A stretch of DNA of 34,249 nt from Minisyncoccota bacterium. Lineage in GTDB: Bacteria; Patescibacteriota; Minisyncoccia; Phycocordibacterales; GCA-2747955. The position numbers were made by a program, and so were the translations under genes. The stretch is from the NCBI GenBank assembly GCA_937958705.1, contig CALGNJ010000038.1:1-34249 (forward strand), given 5' to 3'. Every line of letters begins with the position of its first letter. Positions within the stretch are counted from its first letter, which is position 1. Below are positions 32,744 through 34,236 of the stretch, in pieces. The notes under the pieces are model-generated. The model saw only the letters and a list, made by a program, of their open reading frames with translations, made no database searches and was not told where the DNA came from.

Positions 32744-34236
<1,493 letters not shown>

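Follow-up and report, generated by a model that had tools for sequence, protein, structure and literature searches.

The window is the whole stretch of DNA that we analysed, 34,249 nucleotides in length. A full-length bacterial 16S rRNA gene is located on the minus strand at one end (32744..34236; Rfam RF00177, 1346 bits, model positions 1-1533). On the 3' side there is first a trailer of ~240 nt, which leads to a terminator-like hairpin and T-run; the next gene is typA/bipA (30644-32434). The hairpin and T-run were identified by sequence at about 32506..32529 of the minus strand (hairpin 32513-32529) and would end the 16S transcription unit. An Rfam scan found no 23S gene anywhere in the window and the 16S gene is thus unlinked. 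A sub-threshold scan of the window returned the 16S gene and two tRNAs, and nothing else. Similarly, a 23S gene was present in 0/27 long loci bearing a 16S gene from the candidate phyla radiation (CPR). Two universal primer sites within the 16S gene carry substitutions (33760-33775 and 32866-32882, minus strand), with GCAGCAGCGGTAAT for GCAGCCGCGGTAAT and GTACTCACCGCCCGTCA for GTACACACC..., respectively. Standard amplicon primers would therefore under-detect the lineage.

The 3' end of the gene was aligned to RF00177. Helix 45 (CACGGCUAGC-GGAA-GCUGGUCGUG; 32757..32780, minus strand) is intact, as judged by the Rfam structure line and the alignment. The adjoining GAUCA (32752..32756, minus strand) is kept, and both elements align normally. 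At the anti-Shine-Dalgarno (anti-SD) position (32744..32751, minus strand) the gene has UUUCAAAA in place of CCUCCUUA. When compared with model positions 1526-1533 (CCUCCUUu), only the U and C at 1528-1529 match. The CCUCC core has been replaced and now reads UUUCA. A hidden CCUCC further 3', for example after an insertion, was ruled out; on the minus strand, from helix 45 to the typA start, neither CCTCC nor CTCC occurs. In the same interval CCTC is found only at 32618 and 32502, and neither site is conserved in L002, a related contig described below. Hence, the gene has a recognisable helix 45 and no CCUCC in its ~13-nt 3' tail, as expected for an anti-SD-less 16S rRNA. An earlier note on this DNA had described a tail without CCUCC following a recognisable helix 45 and GGATCA, with no CCTCC before the terminator. 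Each of these points is borne out.

On sequence grounds, the window belongs to the Paceibacteria (Parcubacteria/OD1, CPR). Its TypA is 96% identical to that of 'Ca. Pacebacteria' L001 and 89% identical to that of 'Ca. Paceibacterota' L002; Yonathbacteria follow at 71%. The type of helix 45, and the nearest 16S genes, also back this placement. The L002 contig is from another species and an independent assembly. It begins inside the 16S gene, reads ...GGAUCAUUUCAAAAUUUGAAGU, and has a tail identical to that of the window. The L001 contig begins within the conserved trailer. Among the typA relatives checked, adjacency of 16S and typA is kept only in L002.

We also scanned metagenome contigs with a pattern that excludes the tail (TTGTACTCACCGCCCGTCA...AAGTCGTAACAAGG), which returned 120 loci. 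The scan picks 16S genes with the GTACTCACC variant, giving a biased CPR sample in which proportions are not population estimates: 48-49 tails were GGAUCACCUCCUUUCUAGGGAG or near variants, most of them belonging to other CPR lineages, whose helix 45 is CAUCCGUAGCGGAAGCUGUGGAU, and CCUCC was absent in 62/62 tails with the Parcubacteria-type helix 45 (CACGG[GC]UAGCGGAAGCUG[GC]UCGU) found in the window. The motif was also absent in 28/28 of the 16S genes nearest to the window by identity (79-86%). Typical anti-SD-less tails are GGAUUAAUUCAAUUUGAA, GGAUUAAUUCCAAUUGGA and GGAUUAUUUCAAGUGAAA. Across 45 anti-SD-less Parcubacteria tails, conservation of the sequence 'UUC', where the anti-SD used to be, is at least 90%. 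The GAUCA sequence is altered to GAUUA, GAAUA or GAACA in many anti-SD-less relatives and is unaltered in the window. Taken together, L002, the 62 metagenome tails and the 28 nearest 16S genes show that the variant tail is typical of close relatives, and that loss of the anti-SD is a clade-wide trait.

Loss of the anti-SD in this lineage has already been published and the observation is not new. Tsurumaki et al. (2022; RNA 28:1041; PMC9297842) found CCUCCU in only 48% of Parcubacteria, and the loss overlaps the group lacking uL1. The anti-SD-less Parcubacteria of that study resemble the window in lineage, in the absence of CCUCCU from the 16S 3' end and in having an intact helix 45. The study covers presence or absence of the motif only; replacement sequences, SD usage and the route of initiation are not described there. 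'Ca. Campbellbacteria' and 'Ca. Wolfebacteria' are among the SD-scarce organisms lacking CCUCC (PLoS One 2024; PMC10783764). The same work lists SR1, many Flavobacteriia, some Mycoplasma, Carsonella and Hodgkinia as further anti-SD-less cases. Amin (2018; PMC6107228) recorded 128 of ~20,600 taxids without an anti-SD, and saw no variant SD matching the variant tails. The window shares with the listed taxa a 13-nt tail without CCUCC, no SD enrichment and no compensating variant SD. Insect endosymbionts and Flavobacteriia make up most of the listed cases, whereas the trait of the window belongs to a large free-standing CPR clade. The earlier note had called such loss rare among bacteria. This is right for bacteria overall, given the taxid counts, but does not apply within the lineage, where only about half of Parcubacteria have the motif. 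The Paceibacteria have been reported to lack rplA (PMC12641178). They are also reported to lack der and, mostly, era. Genes for S1, IF3, bS21, Era and uL1 do not occur within the window, and the rplK-rplA region lies outside it.

For statistics on the mRNA side, genes were called with a crude rule (first or longest ATG, at least 100 aa, non-overlapping ORFs). The sample is small, with ~28 genes in the window and 27 in the start statistics. An alternative genetic code was ruled out by the long ORFs obtained under table 11 and by tRNA-Trp(CCA). SD-like 4-mers (GGAG, GAGG, AGGA) at positions -18..-4 were found for 2/27 genes, compared with 1/27 in an upstream control region, and are thus at background. 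The duplex energy with a canonical anti-SD was -1.97 kcal/mol near starts and -2.01 kcal/mol for shuffled sequence. Conversely, in a non-CPR positive control, taken from the loci of the typA comparison and passed through the same pipeline, the energy fell from -3.40 further upstream to -5.21 near starts (p=0.0014), although with this ORF rule SD-like 4-mers were present in only 33% of the positive-control genes. There is, then, no SD enrichment upstream of the 27 ORFs. The highly expressed rpsL-rpsG-(119-aa ORF)-fusA cluster (10776..14631, minus strand; start contexts and Pfam) has A/T-rich leaders from which the SD is absent. The start contexts quoted in the earlier note for fusA, rpsL, rpsG, serS and dinB are all correct, and its gene names agree with Pfam. 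The same is true of the TAATG overlap of serS/ftsQ, the dnaX/HAD overlap ATGATTAA and the 8-nt overlap before mrdA, for which the partner is an 85-aa membrane ORF. Its proposal of SD-independent initiation, with loss of the rRNA partner sequence, is supported: the tail lacks CCUCC, and neither the 4-mer counts nor the duplex energies show an SD signal.

Two ORFs in this part of the window are unusual. The 119-aa ORF (13054-13413, minus strand) has no family and, together with a spacer of ~300 nt, separates rpsG from fusA, splitting the usually tight str operon. The gene at 14713-15177 (minus strand) encodes a 154-aa ORF with no confident family. No other gene has a textbook AAGGAG; here it lies 8 nt before the ATG. 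In the same region (14713-15240, minus strand), this ORF has a perfect TTGACA-16-TATAAT promoter (15213-15240). Where the 16S rRNA has no anti-SD, such an AAGGAG-bearing gene is unexpected, and it may be a recent acquisition.

Loci from CPR that keep CCUCC had SD-like 4-mers for 15% of genes, compared with 9% in the control region, and the ΔG test gave p=0.26. Tentatively, for a small sample of CCUCC-keeping CPR, this suggests that use of the SD was weak before the motif was lost.

A different signal was evident at the gene starts. In 9/27 genes, compared with 1.2 expected, the ATG is preceded at 5-9 nt by a -10-like hexamer. The extended form, TGnTAnnnT, occurs at the same distance for 7 genes, with 0.68 expected, and for 8 genes once the start of a SpoU methyltransferase is corrected. 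The pattern TGNTANNNT-N6/N9-ATG has 10 matches in the whole window, counting both strands, and 8/10 are gene starts (binomial 4e-12). Spacing is 9 nt for mscS, gatB, dnaX and typA, and 6 nt for the GST-like, SpoU methyltransferase and NUDIX genes and a 134-aa ORF.

All eight starts are on the minus strand. At typA (32432..32452, element 32444-32452) the order is TGTTATAAT, 9 nt, ATG. The arrangement is identical in L001, and the mRNA is predicted to be leaderless or to have a 2-3-nt leader. The pattern scan found the same element and spacing at dnaX (28679..28699, element 28691-28699; TGTTATAAT, 9 nt, ATG). In L002, a gene of the same size, which by size rather than alignment is probably the dnaX ortholog, has TGTTATAAT, 6 nt and ATG right after a terminator-like hairpin. 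For the 134-aa ORF (25658..25675, element 25667-25675) a terminator hairpin, at the terminator-like site 25680-25703, is followed by TGATATACT, 6 nt and ATG. The GST-like gene (18394..18411, element 18403-18411) likewise has a terminator hairpin, TGATAGAAT, 6 nt and ATG in the pattern scan. The remaining matches from that scan are the NUDIX gene (24581..24598, element 24590-24598; TGCTATACT, 6 nt, ATG), gatB (16660..16680, element 16672-16680; TGATAAAAT, 9 nt, ATG) and mscS (7816..7836, element 7828-7836; TGTTACAAT, 9 nt, ATG), which starts within an 82-nt divergent intergenic region. The likely true start of the SpoU-type rRNA methyltransferase (22127..22144, element 22136-22144; TGGTATACT, 6 nt, ATG) is found after a terminator at 22158-22193. 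Its mechanical ORF (21389-22363, minus strand) appears ~78 codons too long, and translation more likely begins at the ATG at 22129, 6 residues before the first Pfam domain. With this start, the gene would no longer seem to overlap the 499-aa gene upstream.

Three of the eight extended -10 elements directly follow terminator hairpins, which leaves no room for a leader. For leaderless transcripts, the -10 element is expected to end ~6-7 nt before the start codon. The four elements at 6 nt are in full agreement with this. For the other four, at 9 nt, the leader would measure 0-3 nt, a short leader being as likely as none at this spacing. The same spacing peak was found in L001 and L002 (6/14 genes). 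In other Paceibacteria loci (388 genes) there were 34 instances, with 6.6 expected, and the maximum was at spacing 6 (p=4e-14). There were 18 instances, with 2.7 expected, among 206 genes that neighbour an anti-SD-less 16S gene. Conversely, the TGnTAnnnT spacing peak was absent in the non-CPR control. Two full sigma-70 scans, requiring both -35 and -10 elements, gave no enrichment (38 and 35 sites, compared with 50.7 and 45.2 expected). Because the classical -35/-10 scan was not enriched, the case for promoters is built on the extended -10 element by itself. From this element we infer that ~30% of genes in the lineage would have leaderless mRNAs, or leaders of at most 3 nt. We found no paper linking leaderless mRNAs to CPR in the limited set of literature searched, and the leaderless signature in silico is the sole part of this work that goes beyond the literature found.

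Start regions have remarkably little structure. The minimum free energy over positions -25..+25 is -2.76 kcal/mol, compared with -7.46 for internal windows (p=1.3e-6). They are also rich in A, which occupies position -3 in 74% of genes, and 59% have T at -1. As a rule, the ribosomes of Bacteroidetes retain the anti-SD. The window has the A-rich, weakly structured starts and A at -3 of the Bacteroidetes type but has not retained the unused anti-SD in its 16S rRNA, and the leaderless promoter signature is prominent. In Flavobacterium johnsoniae, A at -3 is a positive determinant of initiation (Baez et al., 2019; PMC6847099), and the genes of that organism, like those of the window, lack an SD and have an A-rich, unstructured context with A at -3. 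One alternative is that the window uses essentially Bacteroidetes-like initiation, driven by S1 or by accessibility on leadered, A-rich mRNAs, with TGnTAnnnT sequences acting as AU-rich enhancers, or arising by coincidence, rather than being promoters. The strongly unstructured starts, the enrichment of A at -3 and the lack of -35 support would all fit. However, the exact extended -10 form is present, including the TG, and an AU-rich enhancer would not need T-G-n-T-A-n-n-n-T. Furthermore, the motif occurs at two sharp spacings (6 and 9) rather than being scattered, is directly 3' of terminators in three cases, and marks gene starts in most of its occurrences in the window. We consider this account unlikely.

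A second alternative is far less probable. Here, the new tail (GAUCAUUUCAAAA) would be a re-tuned anti-SD that pairs with some other A/G-rich motif upstream of starts, such as UGAAA or GAAAU. Conservation of 'UUC' among anti-SD-less relatives is in line with this, as is GAAA near a few starts (serS AAAAGAAAAC, dnaX AATGAAAAC). However, the window's own tail gave -1.69 kcal/mol against positions -22..-1, compared with -2.07 for shuffled sequence. The same null result was obtained for the window, L001 and L002 combined, and for the 206 genes beside anti-SD-less 16S genes. The absence of matching variant SDs in the survey of Amin (2018) also argues against re-tuning. Since pairing was no better than with shuffled sequence, we ruled out a replacement SD complementary to the new tail.

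Metagenome assemblies often break at rRNA genes, the L001 and L002 contigs do so inside or just past the 16S gene, and one rrs copy is visible in 34 kb, but it is scarcely credible that the 3' end is chimeric or mis-assembled, that the gene is a pseudogene, or that a second, functional copy keeps CCUCC: the gene matches the model over its full length with a score similar to the 1325-1391 bits of relatives, the tail and conserved trailer recur in L002 and the trailer in L001, CCUCC is absent from all 62 Parcubacteria-type tails of independent metagenomes, and the genes of the window lack an SD.

The segment that was once the anti-SD may have a different partner. In the window, this segment and the first bases of the trailer could form a 7-bp hairpin, AUUUCAA-AAA-UUGAAGU (32736..32752, minus strand), which is weak (MFE -2.5 kcal/mol, z -1.07). 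The same stem is found in L002, where a loop base differs. A second trailer hairpin (32704..32735, minus strand) would stack on the first, and the 58-nt fold has an energy of -12.1 kcal/mol (z -2.41). In L002, where both hairpins span 47-84, the second has a compensatory change from TATATG/CATATA to TATACG/CGTATA. Among anti-SD-keeping CPR, CUCCUU pairs with AGGGAG just 3' in 32/35 tails (null 13.9 +/- 2.7). In 47/62 anti-SD-less tails the same place can form a hairpin with 4 bp or more (null 29.2 +/- 3.7; the highest count among 300 shuffles was 40), such as UUCA-NNN-UGAA or UUCC-NNNN-GGAA. When 58 tails were realigned with a covariance model, 65.6% of cells were paired, compared with 68% in shuffles, and there was no excess covariation. 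Because the covariation test was negative, the hairpin idea draws only on the shuffle test and on conservation in L002. A hairpin including the former anti-SD segment is therefore a weakly supported lead and not a finding. A GUCGA motif recurs 30-60 nt past the 16S end in many CPR trailers, and the stacked hairpins and this motif may be processing signals. Six further loci (L086, L142, L145, L151, L168 and L172) have non-Parcubacteria 16S genes (helix 45 UAUCCGUA...) with the variant tails AUCUCC, AUCCC, ACUUCC and ACUGCC, and a matching complementary stretch follows each. Thus, in other lineages too, the tail-trailer hairpin appears to co-vary with the anti-SD variant.

The one 16S rRNA gene seen in the window is unlinked and appears functional despite loss of CCUCC, and the mRNAs have neither an SD nor a motif complementary to the tail. 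The reading that we favour, with a probability of roughly 80%, is that Paceibacteria with this 16S rRNA lack both the SD and any replacement for it, start translation by three SD-independent routes, and lost CCUCC under relaxed selection. By the first route, ~30% of genes (8 of ~28), with the extended -10 TGnTAnnnT 6 or 9 nt before the ATG, would give mRNAs with no leader or one of 2-3 nt, with direct binding of the 5'-terminal AUG. By the second, about a quarter of genes would be coupled to the upstream gene, through overlapping or abutting stop and start codons or gaps of at most 8 nt. The remaining genes might be recognised, as in Bacteroidetes, by a start region that is unstructured and rich in A, with a pyrimidine at -1 and A at -3. 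With SD use already weak in CCUCC-keeping CPR, the tail probably came under relaxed selection and its motif drifted. The conserved remnants (GAUCA in the window, and 'UUC') may have a role in the processing or assembly of rRNA, and not in binding mRNA. A bolder version falls a little short of even odds. This holds that anti-SD loss is the end point of a CPR-wide shift away from SD pairing, that around one third of genes would be leaderless by means of an extended -10 abutting the ATG, and that nothing would be left of the former anti-SD but the 5' arm of a processing hairpin at the 3' end of the pre-rRNA.

Loss of the anti-SD goes together with leaderless mRNAs in Nanoarchaeia, where CCUCC is absent (PMC10783764, PMC3986360). 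The small-subunit rRNA of mammalian mitochondria also lacks an anti-SD, and the mRNAs are leaderless (mentioned in PMC10582724). These mitochondria resemble the window in having a reduced ribosome, no anti-SD and a helix 45 that is kept, but belong to an unrelated lineage with very different initiation factors and mRNA organisation. In leaderless-rich Mycobacterium and Haloferax, as in the window, the -10 element is spaced for a transcription start at, or next to, the AUG. A leaderless fraction of ~30% is predicted for the lineage of the window, and of ~9% for other Paceibacteria loci, both below that of haloarchaea. If leaderless expression is indeed widespread, this bacterial clade would join the systems, such as Nanoarchaeia and mitochondria, that pair anti-SD loss with leaderless mRNAs. 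Such expression would also fit the reduced set of ribosomal components and assembly factors in CPR. One contig here ties a 16S tail to ~28 genes, and so documents the rRNA and mRNA sides of a large clade of ultrasmall bacteria without SD pairing. Tools that rely on ribosome binding sites, whether gene finders or expression designs, will mis-call starts in such genomes; starts and promoters could be anchored instead by the signature TGnTAnnnT-N6/9-ATG.

Two further features of the window were recorded. Segments of ~800 nt each at 2965-3780 and 28682-29468 have no convincing ORF and no Rfam match, even sub-threshold, which is unusual in a compact genome. The gene at 16710-17762 (minus strand) encodes an SBP_bac_3 solute-binding domain fused to Lig_chan, and is a GluR0-like prokaryotic homologue of glutamate receptors in CPR.
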